A DNA stretch of 8,824 nucleotides from a virus (IMGVR_UViG_2681813234_000007); one strand, 5' to 3'. Shown: positions 4,482 to 8,571, counted from the stretch's first letter. The notes: generated by a model from the letters alone, not told the origin. Numbers and translations are program-made.

Positions 4482-4778
4482 ATGGCACAAGGATTACAAT
4501 GCTGGAATAGTGCAGGGGTATTAGTAGTAGATCTCGGTGATTATAACATGCGGTATATGGGTACTTACTCAATTACTGCTACTACTGCATCAAGTTATAC
4601 TGTTACTGTACCCGGAATGAAAACAACAGGGTGGATTGCCTATTACGCACCATCTACGGATGTTTTTAATAATTGGTCTGTTATTTGTAATAATGGTTCA
4701 ATGACTATCATTTATCTACCAACGGGATCACCGTTTGCTGGTACGTATAGTTTCAACGTATATAAGTGGACGGTGTAA
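4482..4778 (+). CDS. small beta-rich tail-associated protein (candidate fibre/receptor-binding accessory), 98 aa
   Basis: AAGGA at 4471-4475, 6 nt before ATG 4482. Composition is rich in T/S/G/Y/N with no long hydrophobic helix. The N-terminal motif GLQCWNSAGVLVVD is shared with the next gene. Position is immediately after the J-like gene. Confidence 0.65.
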   Translation: MAQGLQCWNSAGVLVVDLGDYNMRYMGTYSITATTASSYTVTVPGMKTTGWIAYYAPSTDVFNNWSVICNNGSMTIIYLPTGSPFAGTYSFNVYKWTV

Positions 4779-4779
4779 T

Positions 4780-5436
4780 ATGTCAGGTTTTGAAGTTTAT
4801 AATTCTGCGGGTGCTCTGACGATTGACAGTACTAACAAGTCAATTCTCACAGGTGCTGTTAAGGCAATGGGTACACTGACGGATCAGGGGTACTACACTG
4901 GCTTTACGTGTGCTTTTGGTAATGGTGGTGCTCTTGGCTTCTTGCCACTTGCAACTATCGTGAACAGGAACACTACGCAGTACTGGTTTCAGATACAGAA
5001 AGATGGTGGCTGGTGTTTTCCCGGTGCTGAGTTGTTCCAGCCGGGGATAGGGCGATTCATGACGAGTACGCACACTGCAACGCCTACGTCTGGTTATCTC
5101 GATGTGTTTAATGCTTCTGGTACTTTGATATGGTCTGCTGCATCGGCGGCTACCATGCCCCGTATACAAGGTTTCTTAACCGTACCTGCTGCAACAGATT
5201 TGAGTACTGCAATCACAGTAACAAGCCCTGTTGCTAATCCCTGGTTTTGCTGGTCACAATGTCCGGGTAACTTAAGTGATGATGGGGAAACAATCGGTTA
5301 TTCGGGAATAGTTATTCGACGTAATAGCAGTACTTCATTCAGCTTGCAGTACGTTTCAAAGAACCAGAAAACATATCGTCAGGCAATGGGTAACAATGGA
5401 TTTCAAATTGCATTAGCTACTTTCACCGGATATTAA
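4780..5436 (+). CDS. tail-associated beta-rich protein, paralogous to the preceding gene, 218 aa
   Basis: The ORF track gives 4735-5436, but the ATG at 4780 sits 1 nt after the stop of the previous gene (TAAtATG) and begins MSGFEVYNSAGALTID, matching the N-terminus of the 98-aa protein. The motif recurs internally as DVFNASGTLIWS near residue 108. Confidence 0.75.
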   Translation: MSGFEVYNSAGALTIDSTNKSILTGAVKAMGTLTDQGYYTGFTCAFGNGGALGFLPLATIVNRNTTQYWFQIQKDGGWCFPGAELFQPGIGRFMTSTHTATPTSGYLDVFNASGTLIWSAASAATMPRIQGFLTVPAATDLSTAITVTSPVANPWFCWSQCPGNLSDDGETIGYSGIVIRRNSSTSFSLQYVSKNQKTYRQAMGNNGFQIALATFTGY

Positions 5437-5476
5437 CAATAAATATCATTATAAGAATAATAATAAGCGAGACAAT

Positions 5477-5743
5477 ATGGACATTGGTACAATCTTGGCT
5501 CTTATTATTTCTGGCTGTGTACTTCTGTACACAATATTCCGCGACAATACAAAAGATACTGATGGACTACTTACACGTGTTTCAGAACTGGAAACTAAAC
5601 AAGCAGTACAGGAAAGTAGTATGGTGCGTATTGAAGCTGATCAGAATAAGATGCGTGATGCTTTAACTAAACTTGAAAACCAGATTCATGATCTGGATGT
5701 GAAAATTGAAAAAATCATTACCATTCTTGAACAGAAACAATAA
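5477..5743 (+). CDS. membrane-anchored coiled-coil protein, 88 aa (possible lysis-associated protein; function unknown)
   Basis: N-terminal hydrophobic helix (ILALIISGCVLLYTIF) is followed by a highly charged heptad-like segment (ELETKQ...LENQIHDLDVKIEKIITILEQKQ). The gene ends 8 nt before a strong terminator and lies convergent to the endolysin. The Shine-Dalgarno is weak. Confidence 0.6.
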   Translation: MDIGTILALIISGCVLLYTIFRDNTKDTDGLLTRVSELETKQAVQESSMVRIEADQNKMRDALTKLENQIHDLDVKIEKIITILEQKQ

Positions 5744-5750
5744 GAAGAAA

Positions 5751-5780
5751 GGCGATAGTACATAATGCTATCGCCTTTTT
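5751..5780. terminator. bidirectional rho-independent terminator between the convergent 88-aa gene and the endolysin
   Basis: GGCGATAGTA-cataa-TGCTATCGCC forms a 10-bp stem (one G-U pair) with a 5-nt loop, followed by TTTTTG on the plus strand. On the minus strand the same hairpin is followed by TTTCTTCTT. The stop codons of both flanking genes (5741-5743 and 5782-5784) abut it. Confidence 0.8.
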
Positions 5781-5781
5781 G

Positions 5782-6231
5782 TTATTTGTTGGTTAGTACT
5801 GCAATCATTGCATCAACACGATTAGGTGTTTGTTTATACCATAATGAATCTTTAGCCTGTCTGATGGCTTCCGGGTAATCTTTTGCTTTAAGGGCTACTA
5901 ACATCTTTTTGAATTTCTGTACCCCGCCTAAACCTAACTGGAACATCATTATCACAAGAAAATTTTTCCAGTCGTCAGGTAGCCAGATGTTGAGCGTTTC
6001 AACATTATGTATTGCAATAAGTATATCCTGGTCCAGTAGTCTATCTGCTTGCTCAATAGTAATACCATCTGGATACTTTTCACCAACATGTAGTAAATGA
6101 CCGTAGCCAATGGTTTCAAATCCTAGTGAATCTTTGTATGTCCAAAATTTGTTATCGTGAAAGTACTTCAATTTTGTTTGATAAGCGATAGTACCTTCAT
6201 ATTCTTTTAATCTGTCTTTTAGTTTACTCAT
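5782..6231 (-). CDS. endolysin, T4-type lysozyme (glycoside hydrolase family 24 muramidase)
   Basis: 149-aa minus-strand ORF. The translation aligns by eye with T4 lysozyme as I recall it: FETIGYGHLL vs YTIGIGHLL; LVIMMFQLGLGGVQKF vs LINMVFQMGETGVAGF; WYKQTPNRV vs WYNQTPNRA. Equivalents of the catalytic Glu/Asp/Thr are present (E12, D34, T40). AGGT lies 9 nt upstream of the ATG on the minus strand. Confidence 0.93.
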   Translation of the reverse strand: MSKLKDRLKEYEGTIAYQTKLKYFHDNKFWTYKDSLGFETIGYGHLLHVGEKYPDGITIEQADRLLDQDILIAIHNVETLNIWLPDDWKNFLVIMMFQLGLGGVQKFKKMLVALKAKDYPEAIRQAKDSLWYKQTPNRVDAMIAVLTNK

Positions 6232-6282
6232 TAATAAATACCTATAATAAATCTATATAGGGATATTTATTGTGAGAGTTAA
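6222..6282. promoter_or_regulatory. candidate divergent promoter region between the endolysin and the plus-strand operon
   Basis: Plus strand has a perfect TATAAT at 6243-6248 but a weak -35 (TTTACT at 6222-6227, 15-bp spacer). Minus strand has -35 TTAACT (plus coordinates 6277-6282), a 17-bp spacer and -10 TATATA (6254-6259). AT-rich DNA yields such matches easily, so this is tentative. Confidence 0.3.
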
Positions 6283-6721
6283 TAAAGCATGGGAGATGTT
6301 CGATACTGATATGTGGGATATGTCAGAAGTAACAGATGGGAATTACGTCTCGTTTATCTACATTATTCAGTTTCCAGATACTGGCGAGTACTATTTCGGT
6401 AAGAAGCAAATCTATAAAAAAGTACGCGACATAAAGAATTTAAAGGCTACTTCAGTTGAATCGAACTGGCCTGATTATACCGGTAGTAGTAAGTGCGTTA
6501 ATGAAATGATTGATGCCGGAATGCCATACACCAAAAAGATTTTGTACTGTGTCAAATCAGACGCAGAGGCAACGATTTTAGAAACGGCATTGATTAGCTA
6601 CTTTGGTTTACATCCTGACTGTTTAAATAAGGCAATAATGTGTAAGGCACGATTACCAAAGAATCGTTTAGATTTATTTAAAGTACTGCAAGATCTAATT
6701 GATATGTTGGGTGTGAGGTAA
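6272..6721 (+). CDS. GIY-YIG nuclease-domain protein (standalone catalytic domain, EndoII/Seg-like), 149 aa
   Basis: Degenerate GIY-YIG core: FIY (res 28-30), 10 residues, YFG (41-43), Arg52, Glu104 in ILETALI and Asn119. The spacing mirrors my recollection of I-TevI (Y6, Y17, R27, E75, N90). The track start is a GTG at 6272 with AGGGA at 6259-6263; alternative ATG starts at 6296 or 6314 are possible. Confidence 0.6.
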   Translation: MRVNKAWEMFDTDMWDMSEVTDGNYVSFIYIIQFPDTGEYYFGKKQIYKKVRDIKNLKATSVESNWPDYTGSSKCVNEMIDAGMPYTKKILYCVKSDAEATILETALISYFGLHPDCLNKAIMCKARLPKNRLDLFKVLQDLIDMLGVR

Positions 6722-6725
6722 ATAC

Positions 6726-7286
6726 ATGACAAGAATAACGGGTATAGATAACGCCACGAACTATATACAAAAAACAGGAACGAAGTTAGGTAAAAAGTTC
6801 CATGATGAAATCATCAAGCGTTCAAGAGTATTATCTATGAAAGTACAGGCAGATATGAACAATGCCGTAGACAAAGGTGCAGTACCTTTCACTCAACGAT
6901 CAATTCTATTCTTTTATAAAAAGCGGGGTAGTGGGGTTACAGCTACAATCATGGTCAAAGATGTTCAGGCACAGTACTTATATGGTGTACTGGTTGAACA
7001 AAAGGCCATTGATAAATTTGTACCGACTTCAAAAGCAAGACTAACGAAGCAGGGTAACATTAGTGGTCTGAAGAAAAACTTATCAAGTGGACGATACAAG
7101 ATTGTCAAAGGTAAGAACGGAAAAGAACGATTAATAGATACTGCTCAAAAGAAAAAACAAAAGCGTGTAATCGGTCTACGGGAAAGTAAACGCCGTAAAC
7201 TAATTTATGATTTCTATCAGGAAGTGAATGATGGTGTGATGTTAGTAATGAGTGGTATACAGGGAACATTCAAGGTAACAAGATGA
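6726..7286 (+). CDS. hypothetical protein, basic (K/R-rich C-terminal half), 186 aa
   Basis: GAGG at 6714-6717, 8 nt before ATG 6726, which is 4 nt after the previous stop. Its stop overlaps the next start (ATGA at 7283-7286). No TM segment and no motif I recognise. Confidence 0.7.
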   Translation: MTRITGIDNATNYIQKTGTKLGKKFHDEIIKRSRVLSMKVQADMNNAVDKGAVPFTQRSILFFYKKRGSGVTATIMVKDVQAQYLYGVLVEQKAIDKFVPTSKARLTKQGNISGLKKNLSSGRYKIVKGKNGKERLIDTAQKKKQKRVIGLRESKRRKLIYDFYQEVNDGVMLVMSGIQGTFKVTR

Positions 7287-7594
7287 ATTTTGATGAACAT
7301 TATGGTGAACTAACCAGTGAGATTAAACTTGATGGTAATACACCAGAGGCTAATAGTATGCCTATTCATAAATGCTTTCTTGGTAATAAGTTCAAGAAGG
7401 TACTAAAGAGTAAACAGATTAATATCGAGCATTTTATGAATGTTTGCTATGAGAAAAAACAAGATATAACGGACGGTTCAGTACTTGCATGGTCACTACA
7501 AGGTGATGAAATGGATGTGTACGTAATCGAACATAAAAAACTATTCGTTAAGGGAAAACACTTTTGGGTGTATTGCGTGGGGATCATTGAATGA
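7283..7594 (+). CDS. hypothetical protein, 103 aa
   Basis: Start overlaps the previous stop (ATGA) and its own stop overlaps the next start (ATGA at 7591-7594). Scattered Cys/His (C31, H50, C55, H84, H93, C98) do not form a canonical zinc motif. Confidence 0.65.
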   Translation: MNFDEHYGELTSEIKLDGNTPEANSMPIHKCFLGNKFKKVLKSKQINIEHFMNVCYEKKQDITDGSVLAWSLQGDEMDVYVIEHKKLFVKGKHFWVYCVGIIE

Positions 7595-7881
7595 TTGGAA
7601 TGATAATTGATTTAATCAAAACTGGAGTAGGCTTCTTCCAGAAGAAAGAACAAAGTAAGCAAGAGCTGGACGCACAGAACAGCCATGAACAGAACCAGAT
7701 CACACTTGAAGAAACGCGTAAGGGCTTCACTTGGCGACAGGGCTTAGGATGGGTACTGACGTTCATCATTCTATGGAACTACGTCATTGTGCCAGTACTG
7801 GCCTTATGTGGTGTAGTACTCCCCATCGTTCCACTTGATGAGATATGGAAAGTACTGATAATCTTAATCGGCGGGAGTTGA
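7591..7881 (+). CDS. small membrane protein, 96 aa (holin-like architecture, not confirmed)
   Basis: GGGGA at 7579-7583 with coupled ATG at 7591. A short hydrophobic N-terminus and polar linker are followed by a ~45-residue hydrophobic block (GLGWVLTFIILWNYVIVPVLALCGVVLPIVPL...ILIGG) that could form two TM helices. It lacks the charged C-terminal tail typical of holins. Confidence 0.65.
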   Translation: MIGMIIDLIKTGVGFFQKKEQSKQELDAQNSHEQNQITLEETRKGFTWRQGLGWVLTFIILWNYVIVPVLALCGVVLPIVPLDEIWKVLIILIGGS

Positions 7882-8571
7882 TTTGGACTCTCTAAACAAT
7901 ACTCGCCACGAAGTAAGCCATACTGAAGGGAGAATTTGGGTAAGTGCGAAGGCAGGTTTGAAACTCAAATTATTAAATTCCCAATTTTTCTTACGTGCCA
8001 TACCATTTACATCTTGATATGTGTTAATCATTTTATCGCTAATGATAATAAAATTGTAGTAATGTGTTATACATTTTTCAAGTTCGTTAGACTTGTTTGG
8101 ATGTACTTCAATGTCCCAAACTCGTAATATATCTAATTGAGATTTCAATTTAATTAGGTGATCTTTATAATCAGCATGCAAATCTTTAACCTTTGAGTTT
8201 TTACTTTGGTACTCTTTATCGGTGATGTTGAGATCTTTATTACCTAATGTTTCATACATATCATTGATGTAAGTATGTAATATTTCCGCCTTTACTTTCG
8301 CTTCAATAAAGTAACTAATATAAACGTTTGCTTGTTCAAAACCTTTTTCATTAAGTTTTGAATCTAACCATCTATATACTTTAAAAACTGTGATGAATGC
8401 TATTACTGACATTATAGTATCCATGATTGCTGATGTAGTAGAGCTATCATAACCATGAAGTAATAGTAAATCGGAATAAATTGGTATCAATGCACCAATA
8501 GCAAGACATGCAATATGTGAAAATCTTATTTTATTTCTTATTCTTTTTAAATTCACTTTCAAAGCATCCAT
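7864..8571 (-). CDS. membrane protein with two N-terminal TM helices and a ~170-aa C-terminal domain, 235 aa; function unknown (candidate accessory/moron gene)
   Basis: A long ORF in the most AT-rich part of the window, where chance ORFs of this length are unlikely. Hydrophobic segments are FSHIACLAIGALIPIYSDLLLL and IMDTIMSVIAFITVFKVY, and the remainder is K/N/D/E-rich. No clear Shine-Dalgarno precedes the ATG (plus 8569-8571). The 3' end overlaps the convergent 7591-7881 gene by 18 nt. Confidence 0.72.
   Translation of the reverse strand: MDALKVNLKRIRNKIRFSHIACLAIGALIPIYSDLLLLHGYDSSTTSAIMDTIMSVIAFITVFKVYRWLDSKLNEKGFEQANVYISYFIEAKVKAEILHTYINDMYETLGNKDLNITDKEYQSKNSKVKDLHADYKDHLIKLKSQLDILRVWDIEVHPNKSNELEKCITHYYNFIIISDKMINTYQDVNGMARKKNWEFNNLSFKPAFALTQILPSVWLTSWRVLFRESKSTPAD

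Follow-up and report, generated by a model that had tools for sequence, protein, structure and literature searches.

What function could a small, free-standing nuclease domain serve in a prophage when it is encoded beside the genes for lysis? The question is raised by a 149-aa open reading frame (ORF) in a stretch of viral DNA of 8,824 nucleotides (IMGVR_UViG_2681813234_000007), the whole of which is referred to here as the window. An earlier note, made from the sequence of the window alone, had proposed that the ORF encodes a standalone GIY-YIG-like catalytic domain with a degenerate signature, that it resembles T4 endonuclease II (EndoII) rather than homing endonucleases, and that it could act on host DNA or in a conflict system.

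The 8.8 kb window is the right-hand end of a siphovirus-type prophage and encodes minor tail proteins, a DUF6950 protein, a 1067-aa gpJ-like tail tip protein, small accessory ORFs, and an 88-aa protein (p88) with a transmembrane segment and a coiled coil. Four close-packed ORFs follow on the plus strand (6272-6721, 6726-7286, 7283-7594, and 7591-7881), and after them the minus strand carries low-GC cargo. A decayed prophage located between yeaG and mipA in E. coli AREA_C483 shares 96.5% identity with the window. An intact copy of the element is 33 kb long and is inserted in yegD; besides a serine recombinase gene it contains some dozen small early ORFs and genes for terminase, portal, capsid, and tail, with the nuclease unit last before attR. 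Carriers of an intact element include E. coli 02B21CPO003B (NZ_CM151386, 1,811,455-1,844,594). A GTA-like or defective element, as the holin type and the small early region could indicate, was considered; a serine recombinase and more than one site of integration were seen for the element, the sites being several. When the region was compared with 50,697 phage records by megablast, there was no match, no isolated phage carrying the nuclease clade was found, and Rfam and tRNA scans of the window returned nothing. Proteins of the nuclease family (137-153 aa) occur in E. coli, Klebsiella, Cronobacter, Enterobacter, Serratia, Pantoea, Erwinia, Yersinia, Edwardsiella, and others, where they are annotated as "hypothetical" or, for some copies named by PGAP, as "GIY-YIG nuclease family protein".

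The nuclease gene (6272-6721, plus strand) begins with a GTG codon that lies 8 nt downstream of a Shine-Dalgarno-like AGGGA (6259-6263, plus strand), read directly from the sequence. A TAGGGA/TAGGAG-N8-ATG arrangement is common to relatives of the gene, and its orthologues begin at the orthologous codon, which is mostly ATG and is preceded by the same Shine-Dalgarno-like element. Given that W7 is kept in 121/127 distant relatives and that no other start codon is present between 6272 and W7, the assigned start is sound, and the FIY segment therefore lies inside the protein; the possibility that the real start was downstream and left this segment out can be set aside. The gene stops at 6721 and the next gene, encoding a 186-aa protein (p186), starts with ATG at 6726. 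This close stop/start spacing is followed by two ATGA overlaps, at 7283-7286 (p186 and p103) and at 7591-7594 (p103 and a holin-like gene). The coupled operon described in the earlier note is thus real, with the nuclease as the first gene of a translationally coupled unit and its sole recognisable enzyme.

The assignment to the GIY-YIG superfamily was borne out by the profile search and the predicted fold. The protein matches the Pfam family PF19835 (SegE_GIY-YIG) over aa 19-107 (profile positions 10-100 of 123), and with an E-value of 8e-15 and 55.6 bits against a gathering cutoff of 25, this match is far above chance. All relatives returned also carry PF19835, with the exception of two fragments (90 and 77 aa). 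As judged from these profile matches, the protein is a free-standing, small GIY-YIG nuclease domain of the Seg/PF19835 subfamily. The domain call is routine in that the Pfam family is already catalogued and PGAP already labels copies as GIY-YIG nucleases. An AlphaFold2 (AF2) model built from a 44-sequence alignment (pLDDT 94.4, pTM 0.88) shows a GIY-YIG-type alpha/beta fold, in which a three-stranded sheet (the beta1-beta2 hairpin and beta3) is flanked by helices. The order of elements is beta1 (27-34), beta2 (39-46), an irregular stretch (47-73), a helix (74-81), beta3 (87-94), and helices at 97-111 and 132-146. Foldseek searches with this model recovered their targets weakly, and sequence searches of the PDB (phmmer and profile hmmsearch) found nothing relevant, so the residues were mapped through relatives, using alignments with T4 SegE and RB16, the order of secondary structure, and spacing.

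All residues that had been named beforehand are present with the spacing described. F28-I-Y30 (6353-6361) is followed by ten residues and then by Y41-F-G43 (6392-6400), and R52 is the ninth residue after G43. These two boxes form the GIY-YIG beta-hairpin (6353-6400, plus strand), with Y30 on beta1 and Y41-F-G43 on beta2; Y30 and Y41 are each found in 126/127 distant relatives and G43 in 127/127. The hairpin aligns to FVY...YIG of T4 SegE and was paired with Y6, Y17, and G19 of I-TevI by hhalign and hmmsearch, at non-significant scores. The signature should hardly be called degenerate, since the family consensus is itself GFVY...YIGxK and the Tyr/Tyr/Gly/Glu/Asn set is invariant. The presumed metal-binding glutamate, E104 (6581-6583, plus strand; the equivalent of I-TevI E75), occurs in 126/127 relatives and in 114/114 clade proteins, and in the AF2 model it is the eighth residue of the helix (97-111) after beta3. 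In the layout of I-TevI (1LN0), E75 is likewise the eighth residue of the helix after beta3. The GIY-YIG asparagine, N119 (6626-6628), is present in 124/127 relatives and 114/114 clade proteins and lies in a conserved C-terminal segment, D116-C-L-N119-K-A-I-M-C-K125-A-R127-L-P-K130 (6617-6661, plus strand), of which K125 is also kept in 114/114 clade proteins.

Downstream of the hairpin, a motif characteristic of the subfamily, E63-S-N-W66-x-x-Y69-x-G-S72-S73-K74 (6458-6493, plus strand), has W66, Y69, and S72 in 127/127 relatives and aligns to DGYLGSGK of T4 SegE and SegD. Y69-T-G was considered as the true YIG box on the basis of a partial SegE alignment and was rejected, as full-length SegE shows it to be a separate Seg-subfamily motif downstream of the hairpin. 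The protein ends in an amphipathic helix (aa 132-146; 6665-6709, plus strand) that was assigned from the AF2 secondary structure and is kept in the distant relative P0105; it is a candidate element for oligomerisation or partner binding. The 149 aa fold as one domain plus this C-terminal helix, which agrees with the claim of a standalone protein with no room for a DNA-binding domain.

The position of the catalytic arginine is where the protein departs from the canonical layout. In I-TevI (sequence verified against PDB 1MK0 and 1LN0), helix alpha1 carries R27 and H31; R27 is the motif-B Arg of the superfamily, which is expected on this helix about 8 residues beyond the Gly of the YIG box. The nuclease instead has a basic loop, K44-K58 (KKQIYKKVRDIKNLK; 6401-6448, plus strand), which contains R52 and the invariant K45 (126/127 distant relatives, 114/114 clade proteins), and the AF2 model places a loop and no long helix at the alpha1 position. 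With regard to R52, the earlier claim held for a conserved basic position in the clade and failed for the arginine itself, since 102 of the 114 clade proteins have Lys there and the other 12 have Arg, and the residue varies among K, R, and T across the wider family. Superfamily and PF19835 membership are thus supported by the features examined other than the motif-B Arg, for which R52 (K or R in the clade) and K45 are candidate counterparts, in a loop rather than a helix. As the canonical motif-B Arg helix is absent, catalytic activity cannot be taken for granted. It is conceivable that the domain is catalytically dead and instead acts structurally or binds DNA, for instance in the virion or during its assembly alongside p186. 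The missing Arg helix, a natural Y30H variant, and the virion-like character of p186 would fit such a role. We nonetheless regard it as very improbable, because Tyr, Tyr, Gly, Glu, Asn, and K45 are invariant over ~240 sequences down to 33% identity, a pattern of maintained active sites, and because T4 SegE and SegD, which are also without the same Arg helix, are annotated as site-specific DNA endonucleases in the T4 record. Cleavage by T4 SegE has been demonstrated experimentally. Across the 127 distant relatives and the 114 clade proteins, Y30, Y41, G43, K45, W66, Y69, S72, E104, and N119 are all invariant or nearly so. The Y30H substitution was observed in P0001, a protein 99% identical to the nuclease of the window.

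Comparison with characterised enzymes indicates a Seg-type descent. The spacing between the tyrosines is 11 both in I-TevI (Y6-Y17) and in the nuclease (Y30-Y41), and that between Glu and Asn is 15 in both (E75 to N90 in I-TevI), but the I-TevI catalytic domain has no detectable sequence likeness to the nuclease beyond the hairpin. I-TevI also differs in being intron-encoded and in its additional linker, zinc finger, and HTH DNA-binding domain. T4 SegE, SegD, and RB16p243-like proteins belong to the same Pfam family as the nuclease and have the motif set FVY...YIGx[K/H]...Y-x-G-S-[SG]-K...E...N in common with it; in register, HFVY...KKYIGKH...DGYLGSGK...E...N of T4 SegE corresponds to SFIY...YYFGKK...DYTGSSK...E104...N119. 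T4 SegE is without the basic insertion and has His where K45 sits, as does SegD, whereas RB16p243 shares both the basic insertion and the ESDWKTYTSSSK motif with the nuclease. The N-terminus of the 359-aa RB16 homing endonuclease aligned with the nuclease over 106 columns at 32% identity (hhalign probability 98.8%, E 1.3e-16). The motif E Asn is present in the lineage of UvrC and homing endonucleases (PMC1564403). The domain is of Seg type by descent, the catalytic domain of a homing endonuclease that is no longer mobile.

What the nuclease appears to have lost is the means of targeting. Seg proteins are 205-360 aa long with C-terminal DNA-binding regions and are encoded by sporadic mobile genes, whereas the nuclease consists of the catalytic domain and one helix. 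It has no second Pfam match and no homing-type targeting domain (NUMOD, HTH, or zinc finger). Among its relatives, T4 SegD has a sub-threshold HTH_17 match, P0152 has NUMOD3, and RB16p243 has a 240-aa C-terminal region; some are fused to DUF723-like (below threshold) or NUMOD3 DNA-binding modules. In the majority of cases, GIY-YIG nuclease domains are fused to other domains (PMC1564403).

The genes coupled to the nuclease point to a late function. The constant downstream partner, p186 (6726-7286, plus strand), is very basic (pI 10.4) and 98% identical to a copy in Scandinavium lactucae. Its predicted structure is only moderately confident (pLDDT 67.8). A match to HK97 gp10, taken as suggestive, makes p186 probably a virion protein of the neck or tail-completion type. 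The next ORF, p103 (7283-7594, plus strand), overlaps both neighbours by ATGA and has no family match; it was detectable in 42/80 and 68/80 related loci in two surveys. The last gene of the unit (7591-7881, plus strand) encodes a holin-like membrane protein of 96 aa of the GTA 3TM-holin type (phrog_2024, E 4e-11), with hydrophobic segments at aa 51-95, a PF11351 match below the family cutoff (E 0.013), and a weak tblastn match to the "GTA-like holin" of Pseudanabaena phage Pan1; in locus L180 it is the last gene before attR. Directly upstream of the nuclease gene, and divergent from it here, lies a phage lysozyme (endolysin) gene (5782-6231, minus strand; PF00959, E 7e-10). This gene occurred in 80/80 loci, of which 56 have it on the minus strand and 24 on the plus strand; in the latter 24/80, as well as in Serratia, it is co-directional with the nuclease gene and abuts it. 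A terminator-like hairpin with a 15-bp stem and a T run (5746-5780, plus strand; consensus match) lies between the p88 and lysozyme genes, which converge on it, and suggests that the tail operon ends there and that the nuclease operon is transcribed on its own. The four ORFs at 6272-7881 thus probably form a late unit of their own. A scan for sigma-70 promoters found 15 sites against 14.7 expected in shuffled sequence, and no promoter is claimed.

Taken together, the unit reads as a late virion-completion and lysis unit rather than the conflict system that had been suggested. PADLOC detected no system: the nuclease matched only the generic PDLC03702 "homing endonuclease" model (E 1.2e-4), and p186, p103, and the holin-like protein matched nothing. 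The virion-like p186 and the holin-like last gene likewise lend no support to a conflict system, and the module is a fixed core and not variable cargo.

This fixity was seen in every survey. The constant order runs from the tail tip through accessory ORFs, p88, and lysozyme to the nuclease, followed by proteins of ~190 and ~105 aa, a membrane protein of ~97 aa, and the prophage end with its variable cargo or host genes. Among 80 IMG/VR loci found through the nuclease, all 80 have lysozyme on one side of it and p186 on the other, and the holin-like gene is detectable in 70/80. When loci were seeded with p186 instead, the nuclease scored in its slot in 79/80. At the species level it occupied the slot in 12/12 complete loci, which come from nine genera; a 13th, truncated upstream of p186, stands outside the complete set. 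The exceptions were L123, with no nuclease match, and L114, with only a weak match to a 32-residue remnant. Both are in-frame internal deletions that keep both termini, not clean empty sites, and the existence of such variants indicates that the nuclease is dispensable at least for prophage carriage. The nuclease has a median dN/dS of 0.097, compared with 0.20 in p186 and 0.25 in the lysozyme, so that it is under tighter constraint than the neighbouring endolysin. The fixed slot across loci, the lack of empty sites, and the low dN/dS together identify the nuclease as a vertically kept core gene and not a mobile homing endonuclease, in contrast to the sporadic Seg genes.

These observations bear directly on the possibility that the gene is a selfish or recently domesticated, minimal free-standing homing endonuclease, which would cut allelic or nuclease-less related genomes and act by intronless homing or marker exclusion as in T4 Seg. 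The closest multi-domain relatives of the nuclease are indeed homing endonucleases, encoded by T4-like phages with the same hosts, its PHROG and PADLOC matches are homing endonucleases, and targeting modules of homing type are fused to some of its relatives. Allele histories of the nuclease and its neighbours are also nearly uncorrelated (rho 0.07-0.29; rho 0.07 for pairwise identities of nuclease and p186), as local gene conversion would give. The correlation between p186 and lysozyme is equally low, however, which argues for general rather than nuclease-centred mosaicism. With all adjacent pairs weakly correlated, the co-evolution comparison is uninformative; it reveals the mosaic nature of the module and does not favour a specific partnership of nuclease and p186. 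A homing gene that has become fixed is expected to decay, whereas purifying selection on the nuclease exceeds that on the endolysin. Considering also that the protein has no DNA-binding or targeting domain and that the near-complete occupancy of the slot is accompanied by no clean empty site, we regard homing as unlikely; as a class, homing endonuclease fails on the targeting domain and on sporadic distribution. A point on the side of homing is that P0110, a more distant relative, is encoded among SbcD-like, exonuclease, and HNH genes, surroundings typical of a homing gene.

Could the nuclease instead degrade host, competing-phage, or satellite DNA during lytic growth, as an EndoII-like or exclusion nuclease? 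The earlier comparison with EndoII stands with regard to the small standalone architecture but not with regard to descent, which is of Seg type, and no sequence or profile similarity to EndoII was found. T4 EndoII (DenA; PDB 2WSH) is of a different subfamily, and its likeness to the nuclease is architectural only. EndoII is the product of an early gene of a virulent phage and nicks cytosine-containing host DNA, while the phage's own DNA is protected by hmC. The nuclease, unlike EndoII, is encoded in a late/lysis unit of a temperate element without a linked DNA-modification scheme by which self and non-self could be told apart; a methyltransferase occurs in variable regions only. In favour of such a role, the position at the prophage end does adjoin variable cargo (KAP NTPase, methyltransferase, and a 235-aa ORF), but the module itself is conserved core. 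PD-T4-3, a GIY-YIG defence nuclease specific for 5hmC (PDB 9U75), is larger (248 aa), has an extra region that reads the modified base, and showed no sequence or PADLOC match with the nuclease. As a defence gene, PD-T4-3 is expressed in uninfected cells, whereas coupling to a holin-like gene leads us to expect silence of the nuclease in the lysogen, which is not what a lysogenic-conversion defence would require. An exclusion role is accordingly, in our estimate, about as improbable as homing.

The reading that we favour, and to which we would give roughly an even chance, is that of an active, late-expressed DNA endonuclease that serves the phage's own lytic cycle, possibly by debranching or clearing DNA. 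Under this reading, a Seg/PF19835 catalytic domain descended from T-even-type homing endonucleases would have become immobile without its targeting domain, as a fixed core gene of ~33-kb Enterobacterales siphovirus-like prophages, and would be produced from the translationally coupled late unit (nuclease, p186, p103, and holin-like protein) beside the endolysin at the attR end. By analogy with GIY-YIG enzymes, the protein would have one active site with a single Mg2+ held by E104, where Y30 and Y41, together with basic residues (K45 and position 52), would activate water and stabilise the phosphate, and N119 would have a structural role. Each active site would cut one strand and leave 3'-OH and 5'-phosphate ends. 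The lack of a sequence-reading domain and the presumed co-expression with lysis and virion-completion genes suggest a low-specificity or structure-selective nuclease that acts on intracellular DNA late in the lytic cycle. Its likeliest role would be the removal of branches, or the clearing of replicated or host DNA, around packaging and lysis, in which case its function would parallel that of T4 gp49 endonuclease VII or of Slx1. The near-neutral pI of the nuclease (6.6) is unusual for an autonomous DNA-binding nuclease and counts against the reading as an active late endonuclease. It also counts against this reading that many siphophages of the cos and pac types do well with no late nuclease dedicated to debranching.

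A functional lead comes from Escherichia phage DCP80, the closest sequenced phage, which is collinear with the window and 28% identical in the tail tip. In DCP80 the tail tip gene is followed by a 155-aa gene and then by a homologue of p186 (BLASTP E 2e-16), an ORF of ~99 aa, and the endolysin gene. The 155-aa gene, in the slot where the prophage lineage has the nuclease, encodes a full-length gp49-type endonuclease VII with both Pfam domains; it is ~50% identical to T4-like gp49 proteins and is present as a single copy in the genome. This positional equivalence is a single case. Along with the missing targeting domain, the presumed late co-expression with lysis genes, and the absence of any other annotated resolvase in the intact 33-kb element, it points to a low-specificity or structure-selective late nuclease. 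The DCP80 swap also leads to a testable idea, namely branch-specific cleavage by the nuclease and a packaging defect.

In its most specific form, this reading would make the nuclease a debranching or Holliday-junction-type enzyme on which a widespread family of temperate enterobacterial phages relies late in infection, where others have a resolvase of the EndoVII, RusA, or Rap type. It would then be a homing-type catalytic domain turned into a core enzyme of DNA processing, and no phage counterpart of eukaryotic Slx1 would precede it. We consider this narrower proposal doubtful, if somewhat less so than homing or exclusion. T4 gp49 endonuclease VII has a fold unrelated to that of the nuclease, and Slx1 belongs to a different GIY-YIG lineage, so that both would be analogous in function only. 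The GIY-YIG fold has seldom been recruited for structure-specific roles, and the Slx1 lineage is without the Asn motif (PMC1564403).

A late role of another kind would be that of a terminase-accessory nuclease, comparable to the HNH protein gp74 of HK97-like phages, which would aid the gpA-type large terminase at cos sites or concatemers. HNH genes of the HK97 type also follow lysis genes at the genome end, and conservation as a core gene, small size, and the presumed late timing of the nuclease would be consistent with such a role. In the intact prophage, however, the nuclease lies ~20 kb downstream of the terminase genes, and after excision the recombinase gene and ~10 kb of early genes would still lie in between. 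The large terminase of this element is, moreover, annotated with its own gpA endonuclease domain, and no GIY-YIG protein is known as a terminase accessory. We therefore see only a slim chance that the nuclease assists the terminase, and return to the reading of an endonuclease that debranches or clears DNA late in the lytic cycle. In DCP80, the equivalent module lies just upstream of a Nu1-like ORF, at a match below threshold (E 4e-4), an arrangement that a terminase accessory would also fit.

The context of the gene is of interest beyond its family assignment, in that a homing-type catalytic domain minus its targeting module is fixed in a lysis and virion-completion operon across at least nine enterobacterial genera. 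It may be a candidate case of a selfish nuclease that was domesticated for a late function of benefit to the phage or, if the enzyme is a non-specific late nuclease, an example of a nuclease built into a lysis cassette. Our literature searches on PF19835/SegE-like proteins, and on GIY-YIG proteins with endolysin, holin, or prophage, found nothing on the nuclease clade. Finally, the distant relative P0105 (hhalign probability 99.5%) follows lysozyme and small membrane ORFs at a different prophage end that has no p186 homologue. A 192-aa protein beside it was considered as a p186 homologue and rejected for want of detectable homology, which means that nuclease and p186 are not a universal pair. 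The link of the nuclease to the lysis end is more general than its link to p186.

Two related IMG/VR prophages, L123 and L114, carry the nuclease gene (~5,840-5,990) with an in-frame internal deletion, the junction of which fuses MSEWKYSEGWDEKQM to LCLNLAMMSKIRSPN... This deletion removes the entire catalytic core of the nuclease but spares the remainder of the module. There is also a substitution within the GIY motif: P0001 (L017 10001-10450), a protein cluster of 57 members, shares 99% identity with the window nuclease and has its GIY tyrosine replaced by histidine (Y30H). It may be a natural catalytic variant.

The lysozyme gene (window 5782-6231, minus strand) has p88 on one side and the nuclease gene on the other. 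Among the 80 related loci recovered with the nuclease as seed (L021-L100), lysozyme lies on the minus strand in 56 and on the plus strand in 24, with this position unchanged. The difference in strand between related elements amounts to an inversion polymorphism of one gene. The p88-lysozyme segment lies between the two arms of an inverted repeat (18 nt, 89% complementary; window 5436-5453 and 6256-6273), the right arm of which overlaps the nuclease gene's SD-like element as well as its GTG start. The repeat could be a product of chance, or it could be tied either to the polymorphism in lysozyme orientation or to regulation.

Within this segment, p88 (window 5477-5743, plus strand; 88 aa) combines a transmembrane segment at its N terminus with a coiled coil, and DUF2730 is present in its relatives. 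A role as a lysis accessory protein is possible. Downstream of p88, a strong hairpin (window 5746-5780; stem of 15 bp) separates it from the convergent lysozyme gene. With regard to the plus-strand ORF at 4735-5436, translation probably does not begin at the mechanically assigned TTG (4735). Its match to a PHROG family sets in at residue 16, the position of the ATG at 4780, and starting there abolishes the overlap with the preceding ORF.

Towards the prophage end, the 96-aa holin-like protein (window 7591-7881, plus strand) resembles GTA-type holins with three transmembrane segments; it matched phrog_2024 (E 4e-11), and its match to PF11351 was below threshold. The end of its gene overlaps by 18 nt a 235-aa ORF on the minus strand (window 7864-8571), which has two N-terminal hydrophobic segments, a very low GC content (0.28-0.31) and a weak PADLOC match to NsnC (E 0.007). 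This ORF was found in only 6/80 related loci and is therefore variable cargo at the prophage end.

The relative L180 (NZ_CM151386.1 1,811,455-1,844,594) is an intact element of only ~33 kb inserted in yegD, in which the holin-like gene (38302-38595) is the final gene ahead of attR. It encodes a serine recombinase and ~12 small early ORFs; replication, repressor and recombination genes were absent from its annotation. The prophage lineage of L180 had no members among 50,697 sequenced phage records. As for Escherichia phage DCP80 (141 kb), the tail tip module in the region examined (PQ671644.1 12,000-30,000) is of siphovirus type and shares its gene order with the window, despite the classification of this phage in Tevenvirinae. 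The DCP80 record may be misclassified or composite.
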